From NCBI GenBank assembly GCA_044326505.1, contig JBIRBF010000002.1, forward strand, positions 1-42,650: a stretch of 42,650 nucleotides of DNA, read 5' to 3'. Of this stretch, positions 1-32,793 are shown piece by piece. The notes beneath the pieces were generated by a model that had not been told where the DNA came from, ran no database searches, and saw only the letters and a program-made list of their open reading frames with translations. A program made the translations under genes and the position numbers. The stretch's first letter is position 1, and every line of letters begins with the position of its first letter. The stretch comes from Candidatus Nanopelagicales bacterium (GTDB lineage: Bacteria > Actinomycetota > Actinomycetes > S36-B12 > UBA10799).

Positions 1-145
1 AATATTGGCTGCGTTGACCAGTCCGGGGGGCGGTGATTGCGCTTGGATTGCTTCGTTGCCGGTGAGGATCAGATTGAGGTTCGATAGTCGAGCCGTCATG
101 GCCGTCGCGTCGAGCTCATAGGTAAACGTGCCGCCGATGCCGAAG

Positions 146-2212
146 TCAAGTTCGTAATCGCTTGGCGAGCCGCCCCAGCATGCGAGCGATCATCGTCGAG
201 TTGACCAGATCGTCCTCCACCAGCAGCACCCGCAGCCCGGCCAAGGAGCCATCCGAGGGGAGGTCCCCCGGGGCCGCCGGCTCGGGGCGCGCGGCGACAG
301 GCATGGGCACTGACACGCGGAAGGTGGTGCCCTCGCCGATGGCACTGCTGGCGGAGATGCACCCGCCGAGCACATCCACGAGTTGTTTGGTGATGGCCAG
401 CCCCAGACCCGACCCGCCGTATTTGCGCGTGGTGGAGGCATCGGCCTGGACGAATGGCTGGAACAACGAATCAAGCTTCGCCTCATCGAAACCGACGCCG
501 GTGTCAGCCACCTCGACGAACAACTCGTCGGCTTCCCGACCCACCCGGAGGCGTACGCTCCCCTCGGCGGTGAACTTGACGGCGTTGCCAGCCAGGTTGA
601 GGATCACCGCACGCAGCTTCTCCCGGTCCCCGACGACGAACTCCGGCGTCGTGGGCAGCACATCGACTGTGACTGCGATGTCCTTCTCGCGGGCGACCGG
701 CGCCACGATCCGGGCACACTCCTCTGTCAACTCGGCCGGCGGGAACACCGTTTCATCGACCATGAGTTTGCTGGCCTCGCCCCTGGCCAGGTTGAGGATG
801 TCGTTGACCAGCGCCAGCAGCCGCTCGCCTGCCATGTGAGCCGTACCCACCAGCTGTCGTTGGTCGTCGTCGAGGTCGGTGTCGAGCAGGAGTTCGGTGA
901 GGCCGATCACGGAGGCCAGAGGGGTGCGGATCTCATGACTGGTGTTGGCCAGCAGGTCGCTCTTGGCTTGGGCGAGGGCGACGGCGGCATCGCGAGTGGA
1001 GACGAGCTCCTCCTCGAGCGCCTTGCTCGCGCTGATATCGACGATGGCAGCCAACGTGTGCGGCTGACCCTCCAGCGCGATGGTGGACAACGACACCTGC
1101 AGCGGAACCCGGCGTCCTCGCCGGGTGATGCCCACCACGTCGGTGCTGATGGCCATGGTGTGGGTGCCGTCACCCGAGCCTTGTTCGGTGAACCTGTGGC
1201 GGAGCTTGACGTGCCTTCGGCGCAGCTCGTCAGGCACGAGCATCTCGATCGACGTGCCCACAAGTTCGTCGTCTGGGTAGTCGAAGAGCCGCCCGGCCGC
1301 CGTGTTGACGTATGTGATCAGCCCCGCGGGGTCGACGACGATCATCGCGTTGGGCGCACTGGCGAGAATGCGAGTCGCAGTGCTGCGAGCCTCCCCGGCA
1401 GCGGACATGTCGCGCGCGGTGGCGAAGACCAGACTGCCGCCCGGATCCCCGATGGCGGACCATTGGAGGGCGCGCTCCCCATGGCTGGGGGAGTCGGTGG
1501 CCATTTCGAGGGTGAACACCTCGTCACTCCCGTCGGCCAGTTCGGCAAGTGCGCGCGCGAGTTCGCCAGGAGCATCCGTCCGGATCCACTGCCTGATGTT
1601 CGTGCCGACTAGCTCGGCGGGTCCCACCCCGAAGAGTCGCTCGCAGGCGTGGTTGGCCTGCCTGATCTGGCCGTCGCGGCCGGCGATCAACATGAGGTCC
1701 GGGGAGATGTCGAAGAACCGCTCGAGCCGCAGCAGTGGCTCCACCGCCTCGGCCTGCGCCCGCTGATAGGCCTGAAGCAGATGCAGCATGTCCACGATGG
1801 GGTCCTGCACCCCGTAGTCGGACAGTGTGAAGCCAGCCTCTTCGAACTCGGCGGTCGAGCCGATCCAGGGCGACCACGCCACCAGAAACCGCTCTCCCTC
1901 GTGGTCGGCTATCACCTGCCCGCGTAGACGCATCCCGCGACGCCGGTCGGTCGCCACGAAGAGTTGGCCCGCCAACCGTCTCAGCTGCTCCGCGGTGAGC
2001 GTGCCGAACAGGGTCACTGGTTCAAACAGCTCGGTGAACTCACAACCCACTGGGTCCTGACCCACCAACTTGGGCAGGGTCGAGCCCGCCGAGGTGATGT
2101 GCAGGTCCACGTCGAGGACGCAGTGGAACGGAAACAGGCGATCCATGATCGGTGTAAGACCGTCGAAATCCGGTTCGGGCATCAGATCACCACGTGAGGA
2201 GGAATTCGTCAT
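146..2212 (-). CDS. Hybrid sensor histidine kinase: HNOBA - PAS - PAS - HisKA - HATPase_c, with only a short stub of the C-terminal receiver
   Basis: ORF 146..2377. The N-terminus (FPFHCVLDVDLHITSAG ... MRLRGQVI ... FLVAWSPWI ... LSDYGVQDPIVDMLHLLQ) matches the H-NOX-associated (HNOBA) domain of soluble guanylate cyclases. There are two PAS-like blocks. H-box is NTSHEIRTP (His codon 935-937). ATP-lid motifs are DTGVGF and GGSGLGLAI. The protein ends LRVLLVEDDLVNSTMIARMLGRLA-KRLRT-stop, so the receiver is cut before its phospho-Asp. Start set at ATG 2212 (GGCGAGGA-like SD upstream, 26-nt overlap with the H-NOX stop). ATG 2182 is an alternative. Confidence 0.85.
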   Translation of the reverse strand: MTNSSSRGDLMPEPDFDGLTPIMDRLFPFHCVLDVDLHITSAGSTLPKLVGQDPVGCEFTELFEPVTLFGTLTAEQLRRLAGQLFVATDRRRGMRLRGQVIADHEGERFLVAWSPWIGSTAEFEEAGFTLSDYGVQDPIVDMLHLLQAYQRAQAEAVEPLLRLERFFDISPDLMLIAGRDGQIRQANHACERLFGVGPAELVGTNIRQWIRTDAPGELARALAELADGSDEVFTLEMATDSPSHGERALQWSAIGDPGGSLVFATARDMSAAGEARSTATRILASAPNAMIVVDPAGLITYVNTAAGRLFDYPDDELVGTSIEMLVPDELRRRHVKLRHRFTEQGSGDGTHTMAISTDVVGITRRGRRVPLQVSLSTIALEGQPHTLAAIVDISASKALEEELVSTRDAAVALAQAKSDLLANTSHEIRTPLASVIGLTELLLDTDLDDDQRQLVGTAHMAGERLLALVNDILNLARGEASKLMVDETVFPPAELTEECARIVAPVAREKDIAVTVDVLPTTPEFVVGDREKLRAVILNLAGNAVKFTAEGSVRLRVGREADELFVEVADTGVGFDEAKLDSLFQPFVQADASTTRKYGGSGLGLAITKQLVDVLGGCISASSAIGEGTTFRVSVPMPVAARPEPAAPGDLPSDGSLAGLRVLLVEDDLVNSTMIARMLGRLAKRLRT

Positions 2213-2741
2213 GGTCCGAGTCCTCGCCCTTGGCGGCAACCTGCGCGACCTCGGCTTGGACCCCGAACCGATCCGCCACCCCGCGGAGGAGGCCCACGAC
2301 GAAAGGAGCAAGCCCCTCTCGCTCGCTGTAGTAGGCGATCCGCAGCGCATCGCTGCCCGCTTCTGGAGTCTCGTCACGTACCTCGAACTGCGGCGGTCGG
2401 AATCCTGGGAAGATCAGCCCAACGCGCACGTGGAGGTTGTTCAGACTGCGGAGGAAGGTCCTCACGTCACTGCCGGCGGCCTCCATCAAGGTGCGGTACT
2501 GCGAATCTGCGAACGACACCACCCAGTAGCGGCCGAACTGCTCAAGGAGCGCGGCCGGCTCCTCGCCCAGCACCCGCGACGCCGCCCCCACGAGGGCGTA
2601 GCTTATGGAATCGTCGTAGGGCTCGTTGCTCACGAAGGTCAGCCCTGGATAGCCGGCGGCCGCGGTGACGCGGGTCCAGGTGTCGTCGCCGTGCTCCTGC
2701 TTGACCATCATGGCGAGGCCGAGGTTGACCATTCCGTACAT
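2187..2741 (-). CDS. Stand-alone H-NOX (haem nitric oxide/oxygen-binding) sensor protein
   Basis: 184 aa. Starts MYGMVNLGL..V....GDDTW and contains LNNLHVRVGLIFPGFRPPQF (proximal His104, codon 2430-2432) plus the YxSxR haem-propionate motif (YYSER, residues 137-141). Ends DHDEFLLTW, like bacterial H-NOX proteins. AAGGA SD lies upstream of ATG 2741. Sits immediately upstream of, and overlaps, the HNOBA kinase. Confidence 0.9.
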   Translation of the reverse strand: MYGMVNLGLAMMVKQEHGDDTWTRVTAAAGYPGLTFVSNEPYDDSISYALVGAASRVLGEEPAALLEQFGRYWVVSFADSQYRTLMEAAGSDVRTFLRSLNNLHVRVGLIFPGFRPPQFEVRDETPEAGSDALRIAYYSEREGLAPFVVGLLRGVADRFGVQAEVAQVAAKGEDSDHDEFLLTW

Positions 2742-2802
2742 GCAATCCTTCTTCCCCGTGTTGGGGCTTCAGTATGCAGGCAGGACGCCCACCATTAGGC
2801 AA

Positions 2803-2828
2803 CCGCGGAACCAGGCAGCGTTCCGCGG
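2803..2828 (-). terminator. Candidate stem-loop terminator downstream of the GT2 gene
   Basis: Perfect 9-bp inverted repeat ccgcggaac (2803-2811) / gttccgcgg (2820-2828) with an 8-nt loop. It begins 4 nt after the GT2 stop (2832-2834). No clear U-tract follows. Confidence 0.35.
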
Positions 2829-2831
2829 CAC

Positions 2832-3815
2832 TCATGCAGCTCCGCTGGTCCCCTCTCCGCCATCACGCCGGTTCCGCGGGCGCCCGACGTTCCTGGCGTA
2901 GACCCGCGACCGGGGCCTGACCTCGTCGCGGTAGGTGCTCGTCGAGTTGCGCCGGGCCAGCACCACCAGCGCGTCCTGCAGGGTGCGCAGGATGGTGGAC
3001 TTGCTCACCGACGACCCGGCCATGCGCTCCTTGAGTTCCACGGGCGCTGCGACTGCAGTGCTGTAACCAGCCGTCGAGGCTGCGACGAACACCTCGAGGT
3101 CAAACGCGAAGCGGGTCTCCCGCAGGCGTGGAAGAACGTCGGCGAGCACCTCCCGGCGGAACAACTTGCAGCCGGTCTGGGTGTCGTTGACCCCCAGTGA
3201 GAACAACAACCCCACCAGGCTGGAGAACCCCAGCGACACGAGTTTACGGAACGGGGACGAGGCCGAGATCGACTCACGGTGCTTCTTGTTGGCATAAACC
3301 ATGTCCGCGCCGGTGGCCCGTCCGGTCTTGAGGTACTCCACGAGGTGCGCCGGGTCGATGTCTCCATCAGAGTCCACAAACCCAACCCACGACCCGCGCG
3401 CACGGCAGAAGCCCGCGTGCAGGGCCCCGCCCTTGCCCCGGTTGGCCGGCAGTTCCACCACCCGCACCTCGGATCCGGCGCCCTCAAGGGTTGCCATTGA
3501 TCCGTCGGTCGAGCCATCCGAGACGACGATGAGCTCGAAGCCGATTCCCTCGGCCCGCATCACCTCCACCAGACGGTCCACCGCGGGCCGCAGCGCTTCG
3601 CCAGGGTTGTAGGCCGGCATGACCACCGTGATCTCGATCTCACGGTTGGCGGGCATCCACAGCCGGGACGACTCACTCCACACCGCCCTGGTCGGCTCCG
3701 GGCGCTCCTTAAGCAAGGCCCTGCCCACGAGGAACGCCGGCAGCAGCGCGACCCGTCTGAGCTGCTCAACAATCGTCGCGAACATGTGCGAGAGGCTCGG
3801 CAACTTGTCCTTCAT
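2832..3815 (-). CDS. Family-2 glycosyltransferase (polyprenol-phosphate sugar synthase / DPM1-GtrB-like)
   Basis: Motifs: ITVVMPAYN, VVSDGSTDGS, NRGKGGAL, FVDSDGD, DTQTGCKLFRR. Start moved to ATG 3815, which has a GGGAGG SD directly upstream. The longer ORF to 4223 runs antisense into the neighbouring response-regulator gene. Confidence 0.85.
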   Translation of the reverse strand: MKDKLPSLSHMFATIVEQLRRVALLPAFLVGRALLKERPEPTRAVWSESSRLWMPANREIEITVVMPAYNPGEALRPAVDRLVEVMRAEGIGFELIVVSDGSTDGSMATLEGAGSEVRVVELPANRGKGGALHAGFCRARGSWVGFVDSDGDIDPAHLVEYLKTGRATGADMVYANKKHRESISASSPFRKLVSLGFSSLVGLLFSLGVNDTQTGCKLFRREVLADVLPRLRETRFAFDLEVFVAASTAGYSTAVAAPVELKERMAGSSVSKSTILRTLQDALVVLARRNSTSTYRDEVRPRSRVYARNVGRPRNRRDGGEGTSGAA

Positions 3816-3951
3816 ACCTCCCACATTGGGCGATGCGCACCGCCGTAACAACACCGGGGGGTCAACGGGCTCCGAGATTGCGGCAACCACGTGACACAGA
3901 TGATGAATACCGTGGGCCTGCACGCCAAGTCCGCTCGCCCTAGCATGAGGT
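3816..3951. promoter_or_regulatory. Divergent intergenic/promoter region between the GT2 gene and the REC-GGDEF-HPt gene
   Basis: 136-nt gap that is locally more A/T-rich (agatgatgaatac). Contains the dyad CCACG (3887-3891) - N19 - CGTGG (3911-3915). A TANNNT-type hexamer TAGCAT (3941-3946) lies 5 nt before GTG 3952, which fits a leaderless or near-leaderless transcript. Confidence 0.3.
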
Positions 3952-5244
3952 GTGACTTTCCCTGACGATGGCTTCGAGGCCAAGCCGACGATCCTGGTGA
4001 TCGACGATGATCGCGTGCTCACCATGCTGATGGAACGACTGCTCGCCGCCACCGGCGAGGTGACCACCTCGAACTCCGGCGCCGAAGGTTTGCAACTGGC
4101 CCGCGAGATGGTCCCCGACCTCATCCTCCTCGACGTCCAGATGCCCGGCCAGGACGGCTTCGACATCATCAGCGAACTCAAGTCCGACCCCACGGTGCGC
4201 CACATTCCCGTGATCTTCATCACCGCCGAGGTGCTCCCCGAGATCGAGTCCCACTGCCTGGAGGCCGGGGCGGCCGACTACATCGCCAAACCCGTCACCC
4301 CGCGCGTGCTGCAGGCGCGGGCGCGCACCCACCTACTCATCAAGCATCAGGCCGACCAACTGGCGGACCTGTCGTTCCGCGACGCGCTTACCGGGGCACT
4401 GAACCGCCCAGCGTTCGAGGACGTGCTGGGCTGGGAGTGCGACCGGGCAGCCGCACGAGGGTGGCCGGTTTCGCTGCTGATCGTCGATCTCGACCAGTTC
4501 CGCGGCTACAACGAGGTGTACGGGCATCTGGCCGGCGACGACGTGCTCGAAGCTGTGGCCCAGGCGATCAGGCCGATCGCCGACCGACCCGGCGACCTGC
4601 TCGGACGCCTCGGCGGGGACCGTTTCGGCGTGCTGCTCCCTGAGACGGCATCCGATGTCGCCGTCGAGATCGCCGAGCGGATCAACGCTGCGGTTCGCCA
4701 GCTTCAGATTCGCCACACCCGGGCGCAGGCCGGCACCTTGACAGCCAGCGTCGGCGTCGCCAGCACGACAATGCCGGTGTCCGGCTCGGACATCGTGGAC
4801 CTGGCGGAGCGGATGGTGAGCCAAGCCAAGGCGGCGGGGCGCGACCGCGTCCATCCGGTCAGCCCGCACCCCGAACCGGCCGCTCCGTCCGTCGACGAAC
4901 GTCCCGCGGTGGACGAATCGATCCTGCTGACACTCGCCGACGACGTAGGTGACCGCGGTTTCGTCGAGGACACCGTCGAGGTGTATCTGGCCGAGTTGCC
5001 CGATCGCGTCGAGGGCCTCGTGGCAGCCCTGCGCCGGGCAGAGCCAGCAGAGGTACGCGCGCAGGCCCACTCACTGAAGTCGAGTTCGGCCATGCTGGGG
5101 GCGGTGGCGATGTCCAGGCTCTGCGCGGAACTCGAGCGGGTGGCCTCCGCCGGACCAGTGCCTGACCCCGACGCTCTGCAGCGGCGCGTGCGCGACGAGG
5201 CAGCCGCGGCGGAGGAGGGGCTAAGGTCCTTCTTGAGCAGTTGA
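3952..5244 (+). CDS. Response regulator REC - GGDEF (degenerate GGDRF A-site, intact RxxD I-site) - HPt
   Basis: REC: ILVIDDD ... LILLDVQMPG (Asp61, codon 4132-4134) ... KP. GGDEF domain: DALTGALNRPAF ... DLDQFRGYNEVYGHLAGD ... RPGD-LLGRL-GGDRF (codons 4612-4626). C-terminal HPt: AHSLKSSSAMLGA (His373, codon 5068-5070). GTG start. Confidence 0.9.
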   Translation: MTFPDDGFEAKPTILVIDDDRVLTMLMERLLAATGEVTTSNSGAEGLQLAREMVPDLILLDVQMPGQDGFDIISELKSDPTVRHIPVIFITAEVLPEIESHCLEAGAADYIAKPVTPRVLQARARTHLLIKHQADQLADLSFRDALTGALNRPAFEDVLGWECDRAAARGWPVSLLIVDLDQFRGYNEVYGHLAGDDVLEAVAQAIRPIADRPGDLLGRLGGDRFGVLLPETASDVAVEIAERINAAVRQLQIRHTRAQAGTLTASVGVASTTMPVSGSDIVDLAERMVSQAKAAGRDRVHPVSPHPEPAAPSVDERPAVDESILLTLADDVGDRGFVEDTVEVYLAELPDRVEGLVAALRRAEPAEVRAQAHSLKSSSAMLGAVAMSRLCAELERVASAGPVPDPDALQRRVRDEAAAAEEGLRSFLSS

Positions 5245-5817
5245 CGCGCCTGCATTCCGGCGCTGCCTGCGCACCCGCGTGAGCGCCACAGCCGCCCCAA
5301 TCACGGCGAACGCCCCCACCACCCACGGCACGAAGGTGGACGGGGCCAATCCAGAGGGCTTGGGCGGGACGGACCCCACCAGGGTCCGCGTCGTCCCCGA
5401 CGGCGACAGCCCGACGGCCAGCACGCTCGCCCCCGGCGGCACACCCTCGGTCCGGGCAGCCGGAACGGTCACCTCCAAGGTTCCCGTGGTGTCGGTCTTG
5501 CGCTCGAGGTCGGCGACTTCGCCCACCTGGACCTTGATCTTGGTCAGCTGGCGAAACCCCAGGCCGACGATGGTCAGGTTGGGCCCTTGCACGACCCCGA
5601 CGCGATCGGGATCCTGCGAGGGACCCCCGCCCGGGGGCACCACAGGCGGGTCGAACGGCGCCGCCACCACGGCTGTGCCCGGATCTGTCCAGGTGACGCT
5701 CAAGTCACCGGCGTTTCCCCCGTAGCCAGGACCTTCCGCCAGCGCGGGACCAGCACCCAGCAGCGCCGACGCGCCGAACACGGCACTGGCGGCTACCCCG
5801 GCAAGAACACGGCCCAT
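5221..5817 (-). CDS. Secreted hypothetical protein with a C-terminal transmembrane anchor
   Basis: Start at ATG 5817, with GGAGG just upstream. Signal-peptide-like MGRVLAGVAASAVFGASALLGAGPALAEG. Pro/Gly-rich, beta-rich middle. C-terminal hydrophobic helix VPWVVGAFAVIGAAVAL followed by RVRRQRR. No recognisable family. The 3' end overlaps the convergent gene by 24 nt. Confidence 0.55.
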   Translation of the reverse strand: MGRVLAGVAASAVFGASALLGAGPALAEGPGYGGNAGDLSVTWTDPGTAVVAAPFDPPVVPPGGGPSQDPDRVGVVQGPNLTIVGLGFRQLTKIKVQVGEVADLERKTDTTGTLEVTVPAARTEGVPPGASVLAVGLSPSGTTRTLVGSVPPKPSGLAPSTFVPWVVGAFAVIGAAVALTRVRRQRRNAGASTAQEGP

Positions 5818-5863
5818 GCCTCCATGATGCAACAGTCCTGCGGATAGTCTGAATTGGGCAGGC

Positions 5864-7111
5864 GTGGAGCAAGCGCACCTGCTGACTGGAGAGCAGATGA
5901 CGACCGCTGAGGCGCCGCCTTCGAGACTGGGACGTGGACTGTCGCGCCTTGCCGCGCCGCTGCTCATCGCGGTGGCGATCCAGAGTCTCGCCAACCTCAT
6001 CTTCCACGCTGTGGTGGGACGCACCCTGACCCCCTCGGACTACGGCGCTCTGGGTGCGGTCCTGGCTGCGATGACGCTCGTCGCGGTGCCGTTGACAGCC
6101 CTGCAGACCGCGGCGGCACGCACAAGCGCAGCGGGCGGCCTCACCCGGAGCACCTCGTGGCGGGCCATCAACCGGACCTTCCTGCTGTCCCTGCCCGCGG
6201 TCCTCGTCCTGGTGGCCCTGGCGGTCCCCATCCGCGAGTTCCTGTCGCTGCACTCGACGTTCGACGCGGCGATCCTCGCCCCGACCCTGCTCACCGCGAC
6301 GGTGATCGCCGTGGCGCGCGGGCTCCTGCTGGGCGACGGGCGCAGCGGAGTCGTGGCAGCGTCGTTCATCGTCGCCACCGTGGTCCGCCTGGGTCCAGGT
6401 CTCGTCCTGGCCCACTATTGGGGCGTCACGGGCGCGCTCATCGCAACGCTTGCCGGCGAAGTCGCCGGGCTGGCTGTGGTCCTGTGGGTGGCCCTGCGGG
6501 CTCCAACTGGAGCGCTCACCCGTCTCACCGGCTCCGACGTGGCGAAGACGGGTGCCGTGGTCGCCGGACTGTTCGCGTTCTCCACGGTCGATCTCTTCCT
6601 CGCCCGGCACTTTCTCGTGGGCACCGAGTCGGGCTACTACGTCGCCGCGGCCACTATCGGCAAGACCATCCTGGCGCTGCCGGCGGCCGCGCTGTCGGTG
6701 GCCTACCCGAAACTCGTCGCCGCCTGGCCCAGCAGCCACCGATTCGCCTCGCTGCGTTCGGCCCTGCTGGTCGTGGGGCTTCCTGCGGTGGCGGGCATCG
6801 CGGTGGTGGCGCTCTTACCTGGCCTCGTGCTTACACTCCTCTACGGCAGCGGGACGTTCGATGCGGCAGCAGACCTCACCAGGGTGCTGGCAATAGTCGC
6901 CGGGATGAGCGCGTTCGTGAGCGTCTTCGCCCACGCCGCGCTGGCGCGCGAGTCGCGTTGGGCGCTCTTCCCCTGGTTCGCGGCGGCTGTGGAGGTAGTG
7001 ATCATCAGTTGGCGGCACGCGGACATGATGCAGGTGGCCCAGGGCGCTGTGGTCGCCCTCGTGATCGCCTTGCTGGGCCTGGGGCTGCGGGAAGTGCGAG
7101 CGTGGCGATGA
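5864..7111 (+). CDS. Polytopic membrane protein, MOP-superfamily (Wzx-like) oligo/polysaccharide flippase
   Basis: 415 aa, hydrophobic throughout (about 12 predicted helices by eye). The N-terminal LSRLAAPLLIAVAIQSLANLIFHAVVGRTLTPSDYGALG is typical of polysaccharide-biosynthesis flippases. GTG 5864 (ATG 5897 is an alternative). The stop overlaps the next start as ATGA (7108-7111). Confidence 0.65.
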   Translation: MEQAHLLTGEQMTTAEAPPSRLGRGLSRLAAPLLIAVAIQSLANLIFHAVVGRTLTPSDYGALGAVLAAMTLVAVPLTALQTAAARTSAAGGLTRSTSWRAINRTFLLSLPAVLVLVALAVPIREFLSLHSTFDAAILAPTLLTATVIAVARGLLLGDGRSGVVAASFIVATVVRLGPGLVLAHYWGVTGALIATLAGEVAGLAVVLWVALRAPTGALTRLTGSDVAKTGAVVAGLFAFSTVDLFLARHFLVGTESGYYVAAATIGKTILALPAAALSVAYPKLVAAWPSSHRFASLRSALLVVGLPAVAGIAVVALLPGLVLTLLYGSGTFDAAADLTRVLAIVAGMSAFVSVFAHAALARESRWALFPWFAAAVEVVIISWRHADMMQVAQGAVVALVIALLGLGLREVRAWR

Positions 7112-8961
7112 AGTCCGAGGACATCAACCTCGTCGAGCTGCTGGATTTCCGCCCCGAGTCCGGGCAAATCCTGCTCAATGGGCATCGCATGCTCATGTTC
7201 AGCCAGCGCGCTCTGGCGACCCTCAGAGAGTTGATCGTGACCCACCTCGGCCACGAGTTCGCCGCCGCGATCCTCACCCAGTTCGGCAACACGTGCGGCC
7301 GCGAGGACTTCGCGAGCATCGCAGCCGAGAGCGAGTGGGACTCCGACGCCGACCGGATCGCGTCCGGACCCGTCCTGCACAGTTGGGAGGGCATCGTGCA
7401 CGTGACACCCACCGCATTGGAGTATGACCGAACCACCGGCGAATTCCTCATGGCTGGGCAGTGGCGCAACTCCTACGAGGCCCAGAACTACCGGAGGAGT
7501 TTCGGCCCCAGCGAGCACCCCGTGTGCTGGTCGCTTGCCGGCTACGCGTCGGGCTGGTCGAGCGCGTTCTTCGGCGCCGAGTTGTTGGCCATCGAGACCA
7601 GCTGCACGGCGATGGGCGACGACCTATGCCGCTTCGAGATCCGTCCGAGGGACAGGTGGGGACCCATCGCCGACCCCTGGCGGCGCGCACAGAGTGCAAC
7701 CCCTGAATCAGTGACCTCTTACATGGAGGAACTCGTCACGGCACGCACGGCGGAACTCGCCATGTCCAACCAGCGTCTTTCTGACGCTCGGGACGCCGCC
7801 GAGCGAGCCAACAGAGTCAAAGGGCAGTTTCTGGCCAATATCAGCCATGAGCTGCGCACCCCCATGAACGGCGTGGTGGGCCTCGCCGAGGTGCTGCGCG
7901 ACTCGGACCTCGATGACGATCAACGACGTCTCGTCGATCTGATCATCGATTCGGCTGCTCAGGAGGTGGCCGTGGTGAGCGACATCCTCGACTACGCCAC
8001 GATCGAGTCCGCAACACCCGTCGCCGAGCGCTCCCCGGTGGACCTCGACGAGGTGCTGAGCGCGATGGTATCCGCGTACGCACCGCTCGCGGCCACAAAG
8101 GGGGTTCTGCTCTTACGCCGGCCGAGCCCCGACGCCGCACCCACGGTGCTCACCGACAGAGGCAAACTCAAACAGATCCTTGCCACGATCGTCAGCAACG
8201 CGATCAAGTTCACCCCGCCCGCGGGAAGCGTCGAGTTGTACTGCCGAGTCAACTCACACGACGTGGCCATTGCGATCGCTGACACCGGGATAGGCATCTC
8301 CGAGGATGCGGTGGAGGAACTCTTCGCGCCCTTCGAGCAGGCCGACGTATCACGCACCCGCAGGTTCGGCGGCACCGGTCTGGGCCTGGCGATCTGCCGC
8401 GAACTGGCGAGCGTCATCGGGGCCCGGGTGGAGGTGAGCAGCGTCCTGGGCGAGGGATCGACGTTCCTCATCACGCTGCCTGGCAGGCCCATAGCCGCGT
8501 CCGCGGCGACAGGGGGCACCCAAGCCCTTCACCCCGCCCACCTGAGCGGGAAAGGCGACGGCCCCGCCGGGTCGCTCAAGGTCCTCGTGGCAGACGACAA
8601 TCGCATCAACGCACTGGTCATCAGCCGGCTGTTGCAGTCGTTGGACTGCCAGGTCACGGCCGTGGGCGACGGGATGGAGGCGATCGCCGCCTTCGATTCC
8701 GGCGAGTTCGACCTCGTCGTGCTGGACCTGCACATGCCCGAGGCCGACGGGATCGACGTCGTGCGGCACATCCGTCGCTGCGAGAGCGCCGCGCATGCGC
8801 CGCCGCATTACGTGGCTGCCCTCACCGCCGACGCGTTCGCCGAGACTCGCGAGCGCTGCCTCGCGGCTGGCTTCTCCGACTTTCTCACCAAGCCCATCCG
8901 TAAGGAACGGGCGCTCCAACTCGTCGCCGATGCATCGGTCAGTGCCCGGTCGCGGTCCTGA
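7108..8961 (+). CDS. Hybrid histidine kinase with a XylR/DmpR-type A-domain (XylR_N + V4R) sensor - HisKA - HATPase_c - REC
   Basis: The N-terminus aligns by eye with the DmpR/XylR effector domain: [64 protein letters not shown]-box [18 protein letters not shown]. Also [18 protein letters not shown]: VLVADDN ... [13 protein letters not shown] ... TKP. ATG 7108 is in frame with ORF 6157..8961, whose upstream part is a shadow of the flippase gene. Confidence 0.9.
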
Positions 8962-11900
8962 GCCAGGGGTCAAGCGCGGCGCGAAGACCCTGCAGTGTGT
9001 AGGGCTTGGTGAGGTAGGAGTCCATCCCCGCGGCGAGACATTCCTCCTCCGTGCCGGCCATTGCGTCGGCGGTGAGGGCAACCACCGGGGTGCGCCGCCC
9101 ATCCTCACGCAGGCGCAAGGCGCGGGTGGCCTCGAAGCCGTCCATCACGGGCATCTGACAGTCCATGAGCACCAGGTCGAAGTCCGCCTGGAGCATCCGC
9201 GCAAGCGCCTCGGCCCCGTCGTGGGCGACTTCACACTCGACTCCCAGCCGAGCCAGCATTCCCTCGCCCACACGGCAGTTTGTGATGTTGTCCTCCACCA
9301 ACAAGACCTTGCCCTCGAGATGCCCGTCCGCCTTCGCTTCGACCCGATCGACGGAGGTGCGACCCTGCGTCGGCCCGGTGGTCGACGACGTGCCGAGCAG
9401 CTCGCCCACGGTGGCGCGCACCGTCGCCAGCCTCAGCGGCTTCTGCAGCCTCGCGTCGAAGACACCTACGGCCGGGTCGGAGTCGGACAAGCCCGTGGAG
9501 GTCACGAGCACCAGGGGGATGCCCGCCAGCGCCTCGTATCCCCGGATACGTGCGGCGAGCTCGGCTCCGCTGAGCTCCGGCATCTGCATGTCCAGCATCG
9601 CCGCGTCGAAGGGGCGGCCGGACACTGCGGCACCGACGAGCATGCGCCAAGCCTCCAGGCTTCCGCTGGCAGTCGATGTCACCATGCCCATGTCGGCGAG
9701 GTAGGTCGCCAGCACCACCCGGTTGGTGTCGTTGTCATCGACGACGAGCACCCGCCGTCCCGCCACACCGGCCACATCCGGCGGAGCCGCGGGCGCGTCG
9801 GAGACCACCCCGAGCGGCACCTCGAAGCTGAACGTAGTCCCGACCCCTTCGGCGCTGGTCACCCAGATTCGGCCATCCATGAGCGCCACCAACTGCTTGC
9901 AGATGGTCAGACCGAGACCGGTACCCCCGAACCGTCGGGTGGTCGTCGTGTCACCCTGCGCGAATGACTCGAAAATTCCCGTCAACTTGTCCTGCGCGAT
10001 ACCCACACCGGTGTCGGCGACGTCACACCGGACCCTGACCTCGTCCGTTTCCGACGACACCAGCCTCACGGCCACGGCGACCTCCCCCGCACTGGTGAAC
10101 TTGACCGCGTTGCCGACGAGGTTGGACATCACCTGCCGGAGGCGCGTGGGATCGCCGAGTGTCAGCTGCGGGCAGTCGGCGGTCACGAGGCAGGAGATTT
10201 CCAGGCCCCGGGACAGCGCCTGCCCGGAGAACAGCGCCGTCACGTCTTCGGCGAGGGACCTCAGGTCGAAGGGGATTCGCTCGATGCGGACCTTGCCCGC
10301 CTCTATTCGGGAGAAGTCGAGGATGTCGTTGATCACCGTCAGCAGCACCTCCGCTGACGACTGCGCCACAGTGAGGTACTCGTGCTGCCGAGCGTCGAGG
10401 TCGGTCACGCCGAGCAGGTCGAGCATGCCCAGGACCCCGTTCATGGGGGTGCGAATCTCGTGGCTCATGTTGGCCAGGAACGCAGACTTGGCTTGGGCCG
10501 CGTCTTCGGCAGCCTTGCGCGCGTCCACCGCGGCCCGACGTGCGTCCTCGGCGGCCCGCCAGGCACGATCCTCCGCGATCGACAGGGCCATCATGTCCCC
10601 GATCGCCAGCACGGCGTCGCGCAGGGAGTCGTTGCGTACGATGGGTCCCTCGGCGAACAGGGCCAGGTGACCGACGAGCCCCGGTTCGGGGCTGATGGGA
10701 ATCACCATCCCCATCACGGCATCCGATGTGGGCCCTCCAGCATCAGGCCCGATCCGCAACGGCCCCTCGACGCTGCCCAGCGGTCGGCCCAGGCTCGCCT
10801 CGACCCGGTCCACCCAGCTGTCGGCGTGGGGGCCGTAGGCCAGTTCCAAGTCGGGCACGCCCAAGTCCGAAACGCCCACTCGAAGACCCCCGCTCCAACG
10901 CCCCCCCTCATCGGTGACCAACTCCTCACAGAGGATCCGCAGCACCGACTCGAGCCGCTCCGCCAGCTCGGACGAGCCGTGCAGGGCCGCACCGCATTCC
11001 ACTCGCAGTCGCGCCGCCAGGGCCTCGCCTCGCTGGCGCCCCTCCCGCCTCACAGCTTCCGAGATGTCGCGCTGCAGCGCGACGTACCCGAGCAGGTCCC
11101 CCGAGGATGAGAAGTAGGGCGCAATCGTGGACTGCACCCAGAAGTCCTCGCCGGAGTCCCCCGCATCCGCGTCGTCCGTTGCGACGCGGCGGCGGTTGAC
11201 CAGGCGTCCGCTCCATGGACGCCCAGATGCCAGCCTGGCCCACATCGCCTCGTAGACGACCGGGTCGGTGCGGCCGCTCTTGAGCACCTGCGGCGTCTGA
11301 CCCAGGATATCCGTCCGAGACCACCCTGTGATCTCCGCGAAAGCCTGGTTGGCGTACTCGATGGTGCCGTCGGGCGCGGTGATGTAGATGGCGTCGGCGC
11401 TGGCATCCACCGCAAGCGCCAGACGGCGCAGCCTGCGGTCGTCGTCGATGCGGTCGCTGATATCGCGGATCGTCAGCCCGATCGCCGCAAGTGCACCCGC
11501 CTCACGGATGGGGAACATCAGCAGGGACACGGGCACCGTGGAACCATCTGCGGACTTGAGCAGCGCCTCGTCGTCGCGCACCGCCCCCTCTGCGCCGAGA
11601 TGCGCTCCGATGGCCGAAGCGTCAGCGTCGAGCCACGGCGTCGGACCACTCAGGGCCAGGCGCGGCAGGATGCGGGCACCGATCGACAGGGGACCCAGAA
11701 GGTCCTCCGCCGCGGGGTTCCACGAGCGCACGCCGCCTTCGAGATCGAGCCGGACGAAGCCGTCGGAGAGCGCATTGATGATCGCCGAGAGCCGATCGCG
11801 CTCGGCCGCTACCCGGGTGTCGGCGCGTCGGCGGAGCTCCGCGTTGAGTTCAGTCATCTCGGCAGCCACGGTGCTCATGGAACGCTGCAACAGATATCGG

Positions 11901-12037
11901 TCCTGGCTGCCCTCCTCGTAGGCCTTGGACACCCTCGCCAGGAGCGCCTGCCACTGGCCTGCGTCCGCCGGCGGGTCCTCCGCTTTGAGCTTCAGCCGAT
12001 CGAGTTGGCGGCGCAGCGTCGGGTGAATCGCATCCAT
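8939..12037 (-). CDS. Large hybrid histidine kinase: coiled-coil N-terminus - PAS x2 - GAF-like - HisKA - HATPase_c - REC - REC
   Basis: 1032 aa. PAS block [26 protein letters not shown]-box [18 protein letters not shown]. Also [15 protein letters not shown]. Two receivers ([18 protein letters not shown] and [23 protein letters not shown]). No HPt. Starts 8 nt after the FIST gene stop. Confidence 0.9.
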
Positions 12038-12045
12038 CTCGGACC

Positions 12046-13173
12046 TCAGACCTCGTGGAACGTCGTGAGGGTCATCGTCTGGTTGTGCAGCTCACACACA
12101 CCGGTCACCGTCGGTGATAGCTCGCCGTAGGAGTAGAAGCCCACCTGCAGACTGCCGGGCGGCAGGGTCTGCATCGTGCGTTCGAGTTCCTCCTCAGTGC
12201 TCTCCCCCAACACCATGCGACGTCCCACGCACGAGATCGCCACGGCCAAGACTGGCGGGCCCGAAGTCGTGGGCGACGCTTGCTCGGCGGCGTCGAGGGC
12301 ACCATCGACCAGTTGCTCCGACCCTGCCCCCATCAACTGCGCGAGCCAGCCCTGCGGAACGTCCCCGGCGAAGATCATGGCGCCCGAGGACTCGTCCACT
12401 CCGAGCAGCGTGCGCACCAAGGCGCGCGGCGAATCGGGGGACTCGCGCACCGCCAGGGGGAACCGGAGGCCGCTTGCCGGCAGATTCTCGGCCAGGTCTC
12501 CGAGGTACTGGCGGTAAAGCGCAAGCGCTGGGCGATCGTCAAGTTCCAGTAGTACGTTGCCCTGCGACTTGGTGATGAGACGCTCGGGGCCGAACCCCTC
12601 CCAACCGCCCCGCGATCCATGGCCGATTCGGATGCGGTCGCCGTAGAAGCCAACCGCGGTGGCCACACCCTCCTGCGCCCTGCCCCCGGCGATCACCCAC
12701 GTGCCTTCGAAGTCCGTCCCGTCTCCGGCGAGCCCACCCGTGACCAGCACCTGCGGGGGTAGTCCCGCGGCGAGCCCCCGCACGAGGTCGCTGCCATTGA
12801 CCTGCAGACCCGGAGCGACCACCAAGACCGCACGCAGACCTTCCTGGACAAACTGGGCGCCGAGAGCCCGCCCGCATGCGAGGGATTCCGAGGGTTCGGT
12901 CAGCGGCGCCGAAACTGAGGCGAGAGTGGTGCCGTCGAAGCGCACGACTGCAGCAGTGACCGTGTGGTCGAAGACCCCGTCGCCCAGAATCTCGCCAGCA
13001 CTCGAGCAGCCCAGGTGCACCGACTGTGGGAACCGTGCCAACAACTCGCCGATCCGCTCACGCTCGTCCCGGCCGCCGAAGGCCAGCACCAGCGTGCTGG
13101 GGCCGTCAAGTTCCGTCGGCGGCGCAGCCACCCAGCGGCCGTGCCCGTCCAGTTGGCATCGGCGCATCTGCAT
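12046..13173 (-). CDS. FIST (FIST_N + FIST_C) sensory domain protein
   Basis: Motifs: [12 protein letters not shown] (FIST_N) and [11 protein letters not shown]....[15 protein letters not shown] (FIST_C hallmark). Start placed at ATG 13173 (GGAGG 5 nt upstream). GTG 13215 is the longest option. Confidence 0.85.
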
Positions 13174-13304
13174 CCTGACCTCCACCTCGGCGCCCACCCG
13201 CGGCGCCTGCGACACCGACGCGGTCGGCTGCGCCCCTCCAGTGTGGCATGCACAGGTCTAGCCGGATCCTCCCCCCAGCGCCCCCGACCAGGCATCCGAG
13301 TGGT

Positions 13305-13721
13305 TCACGTGAGCCAACGGGCACCGAGCTGCTCGATACCCTCGACGAGCCCGGCGGCAGCACCGCGAGGCACCACCGGACCGGGTGTCCACGCGAGCGC
13401 GTCGAACGGGCATACCTCCACACAGACGCCGCAGAACATGCACAGGCCGAAGTCGATCGCGAAGGCGTCCAGCACCTTGACCTTGCGCGTCCGTCCGCGC
13501 GGCCGGCCGCTGCCCGGCGCCGTCGGATCACCAACAGGCTGCTGCTCCTCGACGTGCGCGGCCAGCGAGATGCACCAGGTGGGGCACTCGGCCACACAGA
13601 TGTTGCAGGCGGTGCAGGCCGGCGGCAGCAAGGCGATGGCGCCATGCGGGGCGATCGGGTTCAGGTCCGTCCGGCCCTCCGTCGCCCCGGCCGGGTCCTT
13701 GGCGCTCACGGACGCTCCCAT
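13305..13721 (-). CDS. NuoI-like 2x[4Fe-4S] ferredoxin (paralogue, not part of the main nuo operon)
   Basis: Two CxxCxxCxxxCP motifs: CTACNICVAECP and CMFCGVCVEVCP, the second in the NuoI-type context IDFGLCMFCG. ATG 13721 is used here. GTG 13709 (GGGAG SD 5 nt upstream, GTGA overlap with the upstream stop) is at least as good. The TTG 13778 of the ORF track is unlikely. Confidence 0.75.
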   Translation of the reverse strand: MGASVSAKDPAGATEGRTDLNPIAPHGAIALLPPACTACNICVAECPTWCISLAAHVEEQQPVGDPTAPGSGRPRGRTRKVKVLDAFAIDFGLCMFCGVCVEVCPFDALAWTPGPVVPRGAAAGLVEGIEQLGARWLT

Positions 13722-14212
13722 TCCTTGTTGATTCCCGGCACTCGGGCGCGCCGGCCTGCCTCTCGGGCGCCAGGCCAAGGGGTGCTCAGCCGGCGCTCCA
13801 AGGGCGTGCCGCGCCGCAGCGGTGGCGGAGTTCCGGCCGGCAGCAGCAGCGGCCGATGATCCCCGCCGACGAACCGCACCCCGAGCATCTCGGCCGTCTC
13901 GCGCTCGTGCCAGTCCGCACCCTCGAACACCTCGCGCACGCTCTCCAGGTCCTCGTCCGCGCCCAACTGCGTGCGCACCAGCACATCCTCGTACTCGGTC
14001 TGCACGAGCGCGACAACCTGGGTGCCCCCCGATCCGTCATCAACTCCGCCGAGCCAGTCGAGCCAGGCACCCACGTCACGCGCCGCGCGCAGCACCACCG
14101 GCCAACTCGCCGGCTCCACGTCCAGGCACCCGACGCCGGCGGCATCCCCGAGTGACTCACTCGAGCCGGACTCCGCGGCCCGCAGCACCACATCGAGCAG
14201 CAGCCCACTCAT
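13706..14212 (-). CDS. NuoC-like (complex I 30-kDa subunit family) paralogue
   Basis: 168 aa. GADWHERETAEMLGVRFVGGDHRPLLLP....PLRRG parallels the authentic NuoC of this window ([28 protein letters not shown]...PQRKD). ATGA overlap with the upstream NuoB-like gene (14209-14212). Confidence 0.7.
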   Translation of the reverse strand: MSGLLLDVVLRAAESGSSESLGDAAGVGCLDVEPASWPVVLRAARDVGAWLDWLGGVDDGSGGTQVVALVQTEYEDVLVRTQLGADEDLESVREVFEGADWHERETAEMLGVRFVGGDHRPLLLPAGTPPPLRRGTPLERRLSTPWPGAREAGRRARVPGINKEWERP

Positions 14213-14709
14213 GGCGCCTCCCCCAGCAGGCCGACTACAGCCTCACGAATGGCACTGGGCACCGCCTCCGGCCGCGGCGGGCAGCCGGCGACCTCGATCG
14301 CGCCCGGCAGTGCGTCCCGGAGTCCAGGCACAACCGAATACGAGTCCCAATACGGTCCGCCGGACAGCGTGCAGGCTCCGAAGGCAACGGCTGCCCGGGG
14401 CTCGGGCAGCTCCTCGAACGCGGCGACGACGTCGGGCAGCGTCACGTGCGTGACAGTCCCCGCAACCACGAGCACGTGCGCCTGCACGCCAGCGCCGGCA
14501 GCCGAATCGATCCGCCGCAGCCCCTCGTCGAGCTCCACTGCGCAGCATGCAAGCCGGAGCGGCACGATTCGCACCGTTCGCCCGTCGACGATCGCATCCA
14601 CGCGACCAGGGTATGCCTCTCGAGCAGCAAGATCGGCGCGCCTACACTTGAAGGGTAGGCAGTCTGAGCCGACACCCGCGTGCGCGGCAAGCCCGCGCCC
14701 GATTCGCAC
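14209..14709 (-). CDS. NuoB-like [4Fe-4S] protein (complex I 20-kDa/PSST family) paralogue
   Basis: All four N2-cluster Cys contexts are present: LACCAVE, GACTLSGG, GCPPRPEA. It is collinear with the authentic NuoB ([26 protein letters not shown]). The start is uncertain. ATG 14709 leaves only 8 bp to divergent korA. GTG 14601 is preceded by a TANNNT hexamer (TACCCT) 6 nt upstream and would leave a 116-nt intergenic region. Confidence 0.75.
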   Translation of the reverse strand: MRIGRGLAAHAGVGSDCLPFKCRRADLAAREAYPGRVDAIVDGRTVRIVPLRLACCAVELDEGLRRIDSAAGAGVQAHVLVVAGTVTHVTLPDVVAAFEELPEPRAAVAFGACTLSGGPYWDSYSVVPGLRDALPGAIEVAGCPPRPEAVPSAIREAVVGLLGEAP

Positions 14710-22218: not shown

Positions 22219-23766
22219 TCAGCGAACGAACGTGCTGGCCCTTTCGGCAAGCTCCAGCATCGGCTGCGGGACCACTCCGAGCAGGAGCGTGATGGCTGCG
22301 GCGACGCCGATGGCGACCGAGGTCAGCCAGCTCGGGACGACCACCGAAACGTCGTCGTTGGTCGGGTTCGTGAAGAACATCAGCACGATCACCCGGGCGT
22401 AGAAGAACCCACTGATGGCGCTGGCGATCACGGCGCAGATCACGACCGGCGTCGCACCGCCGGCAATACCCGCGGTGAAGACGAAGAACTTGCCGGTGAA
22501 GCCGCTCGTCAGCGGGATACCGGCGAAGGCGAGGAGGAAGAACGCAAACGAGCCGGCTACCAGCGGCGATCGCTTGCCGAGTCCCACCCAACTGCTCAGT
22601 CCGGTGGCCTCGCCCGAGGGGTTGCGCACCAGCGACACCACGGCAAAGGCGCCCACCGTGCTGACGCCGTAGGCGAACAGGTAGAACAGCGACCCGCCCA
22701 GGCCCGCCGGATTGGTGGCGATCACGCCGACGAGCAGGAAGCCCGCGTGCGCGATGGACGAGTACGCGAGCATCCGCTTCACGTCGGTCTGAGTGAGGGC
22801 GAAGATCACTCCGACGAACATCGTCAGGATGGCGATCAGCCAGAAGGCCGGCCGCCAATCCCACTTGGAGGCCCCGAAGGCGACGTAGAACAGCCGGAGC
22901 AGCGCCCCGAACCCCGCGAGCTTCACGGCAGCCGCCATGAAACCGGTGAGTGGCGTCGGTGCGCCCTGGTAGACGTCGGGCACCCACTGCTGGAACGGCA
23001 CGGCGCCGACCTTGAACAACATGCCGACCGCGATGAGCGCGATGCCGGCGATGATCAGCCCGTTGGGACCTGCCACCGCCGCCATGGCGTCAGCGATACC
23101 GCCGAAGCCGAGAGTGCCGGAGAACCCGAACACTAGGGCCGCGCCATACAGGAAGAACGCGGACCCGAACGATCCCAGCAGGAAGTACTTGATCGCGGCT
23201 TCCTGGCTGAGCAGGCGGCGCCGACGGGCCATCCCGGTCATGAGGTAGAGCGGGAGCGACATGACCTCCAGCGCGATGAACATCGTCAACAGGTCGTTCG
23301 ACACGACGAACACGAGCATGCCGCCGACGCTGAACAGGAACAGCGGCCAGATCTCGGTCTGCAGGTAGCCCTCGGCGGCGAACTCCCGCTCCTCGGAGCT
23401 TCCCGGCAGGGCCGAGGCCCGTGGCGCGAAGGCATCGCCGGCCGGGTCGGCCTCGCGCTCGAACATGACGAAGGCCGCCAGCACGGCGATGAGCAGCGTC
23501 GCACCCTGCAGGAACAGTCCGGGCGAGTCGATCGCCAACGCCCCGCGGGCGGTTGTGATGTTCGTGCCGGCGAGCGCGAAGACGAGCACGAGCGCCACGG
23601 CTAGGGCCACGACGACCAAGACCAGTTGCGCGTTGCGTCGCTTCTGCCGGGGCAGCAGCGCCTCGAGCACCACACTGACGAGGGCTGCGCCAAGGACGAC
23701 CAGGATCGGCGCGAGCGCCGCGTAGTCGAAGTCGGGCCCGGGGATGGAGTCCATCAGCTCGGTCAT
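22219..23766 (-). CDS. nuoN: NADH-quinone oxidoreductase subunit N
   Basis: 515-aa polytopic antiporter-like protein, last gene of the operon. ATGA overlap with the nuoM stop (23763-23766). Confidence 0.9.
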   Translation of the reverse strand: MTELMDSIPGPDFDYAALAPILVVLGAALVSVVLEALLPRQKRRNAQLVLVVVALAVALVLVFALAGTNITTARGALAIDSPGLFLQGATLLIAVLAAFVMFEREADPAGDAFAPRASALPGSSEEREFAAEGYLQTEIWPLFLFSVGGMLVFVVSNDLLTMFIALEVMSLPLYLMTGMARRRRLLSQEAAIKYFLLGSFGSAFFLYGAALVFGFSGTLGFGGIADAMAAVAGPNGLIIAGIALIAVGMLFKVGAVPFQQWVPDVYQGAPTPLTGFMAAAVKLAGFGALLRLFYVAFGASKWDWRPAFWLIAILTMFVGVIFALTQTDVKRMLAYSSIAHAGFLLVGVIATNPAGLGGSLFYLFAYGVSTVGAFAVVSLVRNPSGEATGLSSWVGLGKRSPLVAGSFAFFLLAFAGIPLTSGFTGKFFVFTAGIAGGATPVVICAVIASAISGFFYARVIVLMFFTNPTNDDVSVVVPSWLTSVAIGVAAAITLLLGVVPQPMLELAERASTFVR

Positions 23767-25304: not shown

Positions 25305-25305
25305 G

Positions 25306-27279: not shown

Positions 27280-27284
27280 CAGCG

Positions 27285-32789: not shown

Positions 32790-32793
<4 letters not shown>
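30316..32793 (-). CDS. nuoG: NADH-quinone oxidoreductase subunit G
   Basis: 825 aa. N-terminal Fe-S motifs ([46 protein letters not shown]). 4-nt overlaps with nuoF and nuoH. Confidence 0.9.

Follow-up and report, generated by a model that had tools for sequence, protein, structure and literature searches.

Background

Hybrid histidine kinases need a histidine phosphotransfer (HPt) domain, and phosphorelays that depend on such domains are uncommon in Actinobacteria. Convergence of several kinases on one HPt domain, kinases paired with H-NOX or NosP proteins and degenerate GGDEF receptors are all already established in Proteobacteria. In Silicibacter sp. TrichCH4B, a stand-alone H-NOX protein next to a hybrid kinase (SiliHK) starts a relay that runs through a phosphotransfer protein (SiliHpt) to a terminal regulator made of a receiver (REC) and a GGDEF domain (SiliDGC), and the relay has been linked to biofilm and surface behaviour (PMC4436077). 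In Vibrio, the kinases CqsS, LuxQ, CqsR and VpsS share LuxU, and V. harveyi and V. parahaemolyticus also have an H-NOX/HqsK branch that runs through LuxU to LuxO (PMC4398556, PMC8738867). In Pseudomonas aeruginosa, the FIST haem protein NosP is co-cistronic with the PAS hybrid kinase NahK, which signals to the HptB branch of the GacS multikinase network, where the HPt protein is shared with other hybrid kinases (PMC11784011). As of a 2022 review, no H-NOX protein that senses nitric oxide (NO) had been reported from a Gram-positive species; actinobacterial H-NOX proteins are noted there, not characterised (PMC8738867). Here we analyze a contig of a Candidatus Nanopelagicales bacterium (JBIRBF010000002.1, 42,650 bp) that carries three soluble hybrid kinases, an H-NOX protein, a FIST protein and a REC-GGDEF-HPt fusion among genes for a surface glycan.

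The window, that is, the whole stretch analyzed, is one complete contig of about 68% GC. A first-pass annotation had proposed that the three kinases, each with a different input, funnel into a single HPt domain with an output related to cyclic diguanylate (c-di-GMP). Our main finding is that the locus probably encodes a cytoplasmic multi-kinase His-Asp-His(-Asp) phosphorelay organized around one dedicated HPt domain, and extended in this genome by an H-NOX module and by fusion of the HPt domain to a response regulator. We give this reading, which is built from sequence comparisons, a probability of roughly 0.55. Convergence on a shared HPt domain is still the most economical interpretation; the proposed cyclase output and the idea that all inputs differ had to be altered.

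Results

Three hybrid kinases and one HPt domain

Domains were called by Pfam scans of the window proteins, the nuo operon and a few other open reading frames (ORFs) lying outside the scan. Nearly all of the proposed layout of kinases, H-NOX and FIST proteins was confirmed, the exceptions being a GAF domain and a truncated receiver, which are discussed with their respective kinases. No transmembrane (TM) segment was found in any of the three kinases and, as annotated, none of them contains an HPt domain, while their H-boxes are intact and belong to one family, as quoted in the first-pass annotation. Their receivers are 35 to 47% identical to each other, and at least two of the kinases combine a receiver aspartate with the lack of an HPt domain of their own. 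A search of all stop-to-stop segments in six frames with a hidden Markov model of the HPt family found one HPt domain in the contig, to which the Pfam scans added none. It is the C-terminal domain of the fusion protein, as first recognized, and it includes a conserved phospho-accepting histidine within an HSLKSS motif that is invariant across the family. The word 'single' applies here to the 42.6-kb contig, not to the genome. Coordinates are collected in Table 1.

Table 1. Position of the features discussed in the 42,650-bp window
Feature	Position	Strand	Details
Sequence unrelated to kinase gene	1..165	.	57% GC against 67% next door; false stop after 'KRLRT'
H-NOX-associated hybrid kinase	166..2212 (ORF 146-2212)	-	HNOBA(partial)-PAS-PAS-HisKA-HATPase_c and start of REC (Pfam); H-box His426 at 935-937; alternative start at 2182; cut by contig end
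Stand-alone H-NOX haem sensor	2187..2741	-	Pfam HNOB, 143 bits, E 8e-42; proximal His104 at 2430-2432; YxSxR at 2319-2333 (Y137-S139-R141)
GT2 (family 2) glycosyltransferase	2832..3815	-	Pfam; start 3785 or 3815
REC-GGDEF-HPt fusion, 430 aa	3952..5244	+	Pfam; Hpt 58.5 bits
REC of fusion	3991-4323	+	Acceptor Asp61 at 4132-4134
GGDEF of fusion	4375-4848	+	I-site RPGD at 4585-4596; degenerate A-site GGDRF at 4612-4626
HPt of fusion	4975-5217	+	His373, codon 5068-5070
Secreted protein	5221..5817	-	Signal peptide and C-terminal TM anchor; no Pfam family; 46-70% identity in relatives
Wzx-like 12-TM flippase, MOP superfamily	5864..7111	+	Polysacc_synt 28.8 bits, cut-off 28.2; start uncertain, 5864-5920
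V4R hybrid kinase, soluble	7108..8961	+	XylR_N-V4R-HisKA-HATPase_c-REC (Pfam); H-box His247 at 7846-7848; REC 8581-8925 with Asp540 at 8725-8727
XylR_N/V4R sensor (DmpR/MopR-type)	7126-7647	+
PAS hybrid kinase, soluble	8939..12037	-	PAS-PAS-(180 aa without family)-HisKA-HATPase_c-REC-REC (Pfam); His526 at 10460-10462; Asp816 at 9590-9592; Asp959 at 9161-9163
Stand-alone FIST_N and FIST_C protein	12046..13215	-	Pfam; likely start 13173
NuoB-, NuoC- and NuoI-like (2x[4Fe-4S]) trio	13305..14709	-	Translationally coupled; upstream of FIST
DUF222 and HNH endonuclease gene	40157-41824	+	Type common in actinobacterial genomes

The HPt domain is fused to a REC-GGDEF protein with a degenerate A-site

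The receiver of the fusion keeps the complete phosphorylatable set (DD, D, T, Y and K, including Asp61, Thr91, Tyr110 and Lys113). Compared with PleD, its GGDEF domain retains RxxD, as RPGD, together with the D, N, GD, K and R of the GTP and metal site, and has arginine in place of the second glutamate of the PleD GGEEF motif. RxxD lies five residues upstream of this degenerate A-site (RPGD-LLGRL-GGDRF). The fusion thereby departs from the GG[DE]EF active site of active REC-GGDEF diguanylate cyclases, and combines a degenerate A-site with a retained RxxD I-site, as receptors of the PelD/PopA type do. Replacement of the A-site glutamate is the usual way of knocking out a cyclase (AGDEF to AGDAF, PMC3974145). 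Judging from these residues, the domain probably cannot make c-di-GMP, and it may bind this molecule at the I-site. Given its GGDRF motif, the fusion cannot be assumed to make c-di-GMP, and the 'c-di-GMP-type' output proposed at first should not be read as a cyclase role. The two closest stand-alone REC-GGDEF homologues (P0141 and P0154) are also degenerate at the A-site (SPGQV and YGKEF), and the REC-GGDEF part most resembles terminal regulators of the PleD/DgcR/WspR type.

A second assembly (L001, 99.955% identical over 6.6 kb) contains the same 430-residue ORF. Neither frameshifts nor stops interrupt it, and its G+C content at third codon positions (GC3), 0.84, is in line with that of its neighbours. 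No relative of the fusion with more than 50% identity was found by an exhaustive HMMER search among 1.84 billion representatives, and a scan of JGI metagenomes yielded no orthologue, only distant REC or GGDEF relatives. Among the 150 best matches, the sole other protein with an HPt domain after REC-GGDEF is P0132, a 736-residue protein of 35% identity with the order REC-GGDEF(GGEEF)-Hpt-...-REC. Since this protein is unrelated and has the same order, the REC-GGDEF-Hpt architecture arose independently elsewhere.

A conserved HPt neighbourhood with population-specific additions

Synteny was recovered by exact-protein and pattern searches. Two relatives (L005 and L007) share the order fn3 protein, HPt protein (211 to 215 residues), secreted protein on the opposite strand, Wzx-like flippase, V4R hybrid kinase, PAS hybrid kinase on the opposite strand, FIST, NuoI-like, NuoC-like and NuoB-like proteins, korA and korB, with identities to the window of 50 to 80% across syntenic genes. 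The part of the locus that runs from the HPt gene to the V4R kinase gene is present in two others (L002 and L003). In L015, a gene for an OmpR-type regulator, the HPt gene and the V4R kinase gene are followed directly by NuoC/B-like genes and korAB, and the secreted protein, Wzx, PAS kinase and FIST are absent. L017 has HPt, secreted protein and Wzx genes, then a NuoC-like gene, with no kinase on its short contig; L020 has the same three genes followed by the PAS kinase, without the V4R kinase; and L018 encodes two kinases and a canonical REC-HPt protein. The HPt gene is therefore the constant element of a variable site beside korAB, with a hybrid kinase nearby in six of the seven HPt loci. 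The family is rare: it occurs in only about five actinobacterial metagenome-assembled genomes (MAGs) among 185,579 species-representative genomes.

In place of REC-GGDEF, all HPt orthologues have an N-terminal region of about 100 residues with a receiver fold (hhalign 96.6%). This fold stops after beta4 and lacks the acceptor aspartate, which makes it a pseudo-receiver. The OmpR-family protein of L015 (7477-8175, minus strand; REC and winged helix, 232 residues) is encoded divergently from the pseudo-receiver-HPt gene, and is a candidate for the terminal regulator of the relay; no equivalent of it was seen in the window. L016 and L020, both from MAG JAUPKO01, hold two diverged copies of the HPt/secreted protein/Wzx set, with flippases 81% and 69% identical to that of the window. 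They are either paralogous modules or the product of mixed populations, a choice that bears on the single-HPt claim.

A neighbourhood conserved in no relative had been named in advance as a result that would refute the proposed relay, and the opposite was found: synteny extends over the genes for the HPt protein, the secreted protein, Wzx, both the V4R and the PAS kinase, and FIST. It does not include the H-NOX/kinase pair or the REC-GGDEF fusion. The REC-GGDEF N terminus, the H-NOX/kinase pair and the position of the GT2 gene fall outside the conserved unit and were seen in this population only, so that the composite 'island' first described is population-specific and does not correspond to the unit that is conserved. 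In other actinobacterial MAGs the H-NOX/kinase pair is located between AdoHcyase and a gluQ-like gene.

A phenol-type sensor on a histidine kinase

The XylR_N/V4R sensor of the V4R kinase matches the phenol-binding domains of CapR/DmpR, PoxR and MopR in the PDB with E values of 7e-31 to 6e-25. It keeps the zinc ligands (Cys/Glu/Cys/Cys), and so are kept the histidine and tryptophan that position the phenol hydroxyl in DmpR; this histidine is a tyrosine in toluene-responsive XylR (aromatic-effector sensors, PMC7264223). Because the His/Trp anchor of DmpR is conserved, a phenolic compound is our best guess for the ligand. The sensor is joined to HisKA-HATPase_c-REC, not to an AAA+ sigma54 activator module, and we found no characterized histidine kinase with a XylR_N/V4R sensor in the literature.

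The ATGA coupling of the flippase gene to this kinase gene, reported in the first-pass annotation, was verified as an overlap. The V4R and PAS kinase genes are convergent, with a 3' overlap of 23 nt (8939-8961). In a single relative, L005, a 598-residue protein that has TM helices at its C terminus and whose Vps62-like match is weak is encoded between the flippase and V4R kinase genes (11321-13117, plus strand).

The H-NOX kinase is cut by the contig end

The H-NOX protein matches Nostoc Alr2278 (E 1e-42) and the beta1 subunit of soluble guanylate cyclase (sGC; E 1e-30) in the PDB with its haem residues aligned; these matches place it firmly in the sGC/Nostoc subfamily. Its gene overlaps the start of the kinase gene in a co-cistronic pair, an arrangement also found in L010-L014, and the kinase probably senses NO through it.

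This kinase had been described as ending in a truncated receiver stub. Its closest orthologues are hybrid kinases of 739 residues with a full receiver, each encoded behind an H-NOX gene, and homology to them, in protein and DNA, ends at window position 166. L095, a Logan contig of independent origin, matches the window from 3770 down to 166 at 99.7% identity, and past this position it runs on in frame as a receiver (..MLGRLGASVRTAGNGAGALEE) until its own end. As the orthologues and L095 diverge from the window exactly at 166, the stub is not biological but an artefact of the contig end; bases 1-165 represent either a minority variant or chimeric sequence at the end of the contig. On the minus strand they contain an open frame (..DYELDFGIGGTFTYELDATAMTARLSNLNLILTGNEAIQ..), and could stem from a mis-join, an insertion or a repeat. 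Since the receiver continues in L095, all three kinases are treated here as complete hybrid kinases. For the same reason we rejected the idea of an evolved receiver-less H-NOX kinase helped in trans by the receiver of the fusion.

The PAS kinase and its FIST partner

The gene of the third kinase begins 8 nt downstream of the FIST gene, and its orthologues in L005 and L007 are 51 to 53% identical. The GAF domain attributed to it is undetectable: residues 330-510 (10507-11050, minus strand) have no Pfam match, to GAF or any other domain, even at E<=1. The statement that this kinase and the V4R kinase have complete receivers was right for both, except that the PAS kinase has two receivers rather than one. 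The window kinase shares the second one with L005; the 902-residue orthologue of L007 (13160-15868) lacks it.

The FIST protein has no relatives by sequence in the PDB, and its sole NCBIfam match is to NosP (NF041558), nearly over the full length, with 38.8 bits (E 6e-10) where the equivalog cut-off is 450. L005 and L007 also pair FIST with a co-cistronic hybrid kinase. NosP senses NO by means of haem and regulates NahK, the kinase with which it is co-cistronic; in P. aeruginosa, NahK in turn signals to HptB (PMC12570481, PMC11784011), and the FIST protein/kinase pair VpsV/VpsS of V. cholerae signals to LuxU (PMC4398556). From its architecture and context, the FIST protein appears to be a distant relative of NosP, with a putative NosP function. 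By analogy, the input of the PAS kinase through FIST may be NO. As a FIST protein with a hybrid kinase is the NosP/NahK arrangement, two of the inputs may both be NO. The 'FIST ligand', initially listed as an input of its own, is thus best matched by a published NO-sensing pair, and the H-NOX and FIST inputs, called different, may be the same signal.

Upstream of FIST, the NuoB-like protein of the NuoBCI-like trio keeps the CCxxE / GxC / GCPP cluster motif, and the trio contains no NuoD. L005, L007, L015 and L017 all have it beside korAB, loci without FIST and the kinase included. It could form a small redox unit linked either to 2-oxoglutarate:ferredoxin oxidoreductase or to the sensing of redox state. 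The true nuo operon is located apart from it, at 22219-37799.

A surface-glycan module

A GT2 glycosyltransferase, a Wzx-like flippase and a signal-peptide protein had been noted among the kinases, and all three are confirmed by Pfam or by the signal peptide call. No gene of the locus is better conserved than that of the flippase (77 to 82% identity in relatives), and the flippase has 132 homologues across Actinomycetota. It has no PDB relatives by sequence; its AlphaFold2 model (pLDDT 92.6) has the 12-helix MOP fold, and in Foldseek it is closest to the lipid III flippase WzxE (best TM-score 0.74 to 0.76), followed by MurJ and MATE transporters. The secreted-protein/flippase gene pairing is conserved.

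All NCBIfam matches of the GT2 protein lie far below cut-offs, the strongest being to PgaC/IcaA and a generic glycosyltransferase. Several weaker ones, equally far below cut-offs, are to the polyprenyl-phosphate sugar transferases ArnC, PgfS, PpgS and AglJ, a subset that would fit a lipid-linked sugar in need of flipping. In the more distant locus L009 (flippase 61% identical), the order is secreted protein-Wzx-GT2-GT4-GT2-GT4, and the window GT2 is 53% identical, and orthologous, to the first of these GT2 proteins, the one after Wzx. On the strength of this gene order and orthology, secreted protein, Wzx and GT2 are best described as an ancestral envelope-glycan module into which, as we infer, the signalling genes were inserted. 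The glycan context put forward earlier is likewise borne out by the match of the flippase model to WzxE and by the orthology of GT2 to the Wzx-adjacent gene of L009. Another DUF222 gene lies near the glycan cluster of L009.

The HPt and secreted-protein genes are convergent, with a 3' overlap of 24 nt (5221-5244); the overlap is conserved in relatives (L002, L005 and L007), where it measures 16 to 24 nt. Convergent pairs overlapping at their 3' ends could permit coupling by antisense transcription or transcriptional interference.

Composition and setting of the contig

Genes outside the island include a nuo operon of 14 genes, korAB, menaquinone-type genes and the DUF222-HNH gene. Relatives of the locus come from uncultured Actinomycetes or Actinomycetota, with some flippase homologues in Candidatus Nanopelagicales; together with the GC content they bear out the high-GC Gram-positive background assumed at first. 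GC3 is 0.82 to 0.85 in all island genes (146-13215), against 0.89 to 0.94 in the kor and nuo genes (14718-37799), and is equal between the conserved and lineage-specific halves of the island. The lower value would fit weakly expressed genes rather than foreign ones. For the left block, we considered a recent horizontal transfer and rejected it, as the even GC3 of the whole island offers it no compositional support. A scan for promoters and terminators gave zero promoters and two terminator-like sites, below the count in shuffled sequences.

Discussion

A phosphorelay around a dedicated HPt domain, and its alternatives

We propose that each of the three kinases would autophosphorylate under the control of its own sensor: H-NOX haem and NO for the first, a zinc-containing pocket of the DmpR/MopR type for the second, PAS domains with a NosP-like FIST partner for the third. 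Each would then pass phosphate to its own receiver and from there to His373 of the HPt domain, a transfer that the conserved synteny supports indirectly. In the relatives, the HPt protein would be a pure shuttle to an unlinked response regulator, because the pseudo-receiver has no acceptor aspartate. In this genome, the pseudo-receiver would have been replaced by a REC-GGDEF unit of the PleD/DgcR type, and the phosphate of the HPt domain could move on to Asp61 in the same polypeptide or in a dimer partner. The GGDRF domain would more likely act as an effector responsive to phosphorylation and c-di-GMP than as a cyclase; its target is plausibly the neighbouring GT2/Wzx/secreted-protein glycan module, or another partner.

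Several observations weigh against this reading. Other HPt proteins or response regulators elsewhere in the genome may be the true partners, and the related MAG JAUPKO01 has two HPt-secreted protein-Wzx copies (L016 and L020). L017 has this set without a kinase, so kinase adjacency is not obligatory; the H-NOX/kinase pair occurs at an unrelated locus elsewhere, so its adjacency here could be incidental; and the fusion is confined to this population, so selection for it is unproven. The FIST protein scores far below the NosP equivalog cut-off, and the locus contains no DNA-binding regulator, its tie to the glycan genes being adjacency. A much more specific version, in which a dedicated HPt hub integrates NO (through H-NOX and the NosP-like FIST protein) and a phenolic signal, and is fused to a non-catalytic REC-GGDEF unit that reads phosphorylation and c-di-GMP and directly gates a Wzx-dependent glycan post-translationally, is in our view distinctly improbable. 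The same observations could also be read as independent kinase systems that are merely co-located at a recombination-prone site by korAB, with the HPt protein serving at most one of them (likeliest the V4R kinase), or serving the secreted-protein/Wzx module via another partner. The content of the site does vary (L015; L017, without kinases; L020, without the V4R kinase), H-NOX and its kinase are located elsewhere in other MAGs, and the receivers of the three kinases are only 35 to 47% identical. However, the HPt gene is constant at the site, with a hybrid kinase near it in all but one locus, and the three kinases, which like all hybrid kinases require an HPt domain, are each without one. HPt domains are moreover scarce in Actinobacteria, being present in 14.5% of the species in one census (PMC4558063). 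Taken together, we regard mere co-location as possible but unlikely.

Two other readings concern the fusion itself. Phosphate might flow in the reverse direction, the receiver of the fusion being an entry or intermediate receiver, as in proteins of the RR-HPt (response regulator-HPt) type, which phosphorylates its own HPt domain and through it an unlinked terminal regulator, with the GGDEF domain as a dimerizing spacer or c-di-GMP gate. RR-HPt proteins are a recognized class (312 in the same census, PMC4558063), the nearest non-orthologous HPt relatives are canonical REC-HPt proteins (P0004, P0005 and L018), and L015 offers a candidate terminal regulator in its OmpR-type protein, which is encoded divergently from the HPt gene. 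Yet the three kinases have receivers of their own, which makes an additional intermediate receiver unnecessary, and the closest relatives of the REC-GGDEF part are terminal regulators of the PleD/DgcR/WspR type; we hold reverse flow to be slightly less probable even than the direct gating of the glycan just mentioned. It could finally be argued that the fusion is a recent neutral or decaying one, or an assembly join, without special function, and that GGDRF reflects lost function: it is a singleton in all collections searched, its A-site is degenerate, and an artefact has been proven at the end of this very contig. This is the least probable of the readings, for the identical 430-residue ORF recurs in the second assembly, free of frameshifts and internal stops and with the GC3 of its neighbours; the other key residues (catalytic, I-site, REC and HPt) are intact; and the degenerate A-sites of P0141 and P0154 point to a non-catalytic subfamily rather than to fresh decay.

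If the more specific version, with direct gating of the glycan, were true, shuttle and effector of the phosphorelay would be a single polypeptide, and no NO-sensing two-component network would have been described earlier from a Gram-positive actinobacterium. The locus provides clonable candidates for the sensing of NO and aromatic compounds in uncultured soil and freshwater Actinomycetes, for a XylR_N/V4R histidine kinase and for a natural HPt-response-regulator fusion. It opens no new class of mechanism; its value is that of a variant and of a test bed for kinase-to-HPt specificity.

Comparison with known systems

The first-pass statement that no characterized relay has this composition was too strong, as the Silicibacter H-NOX relay, the NosP/NahK pathway to HptB and the four kinases that converge on LuxU have all been characterized. 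What is new here is the phylum, the conserved module of HPt protein, DmpR-type sensor kinase and flippase, and the HPt-REC-GGDEF fusion.

The Silicibacter relay has the same four component types. There, Hpt and REC-GGDEF are separate proteins, whereas here they form one polypeptide; SiliDGC is an active cyclase, whereas the GGDRF domain is probably inactive; and two extra kinases lie beside the HPt gene in an actinobacterial host. The likeness to the LuxU hub resides in several hybrid kinases with unrelated sensors that use one HPt protein, among them a soluble FIST-partnered kinase (VpsV/NosP) and an H-NOX-partnered one. LuxU, however, is a stand-alone HPt protein with the sigma54 activator LuxO as output, without a GGDEF fusion or a V4R kinase, and the Vibrio kinases are scattered over the genome, several of them membrane-bound, while those described here are clustered and soluble. 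Compared with NosP/NahK, the FIST protein has a low score (38.8 bits against 450), and the partners HsbR and HsbA were not seen here. Sensors of the XylR/DmpR/MopR/PoxR class (PDB 6iy8, 5fru and 5kbe; PMC7264223) share the zinc ligands and the His/Trp pair, and have an AAA+ sigma54 activator as output where this locus has a hybrid histidine kinase. Finally, PelD and PopA (PMC7112168, PMC3974145) combine a non-canonical A-site with an RxxD I-site and are encoded next to genes of glycan synthesis and export, as is the fusion. PelD, which is anchored in the membrane and contains a GAF domain, lacks both REC and HPt, whereas the fusion, a putative c-di-GMP receptor, has both.

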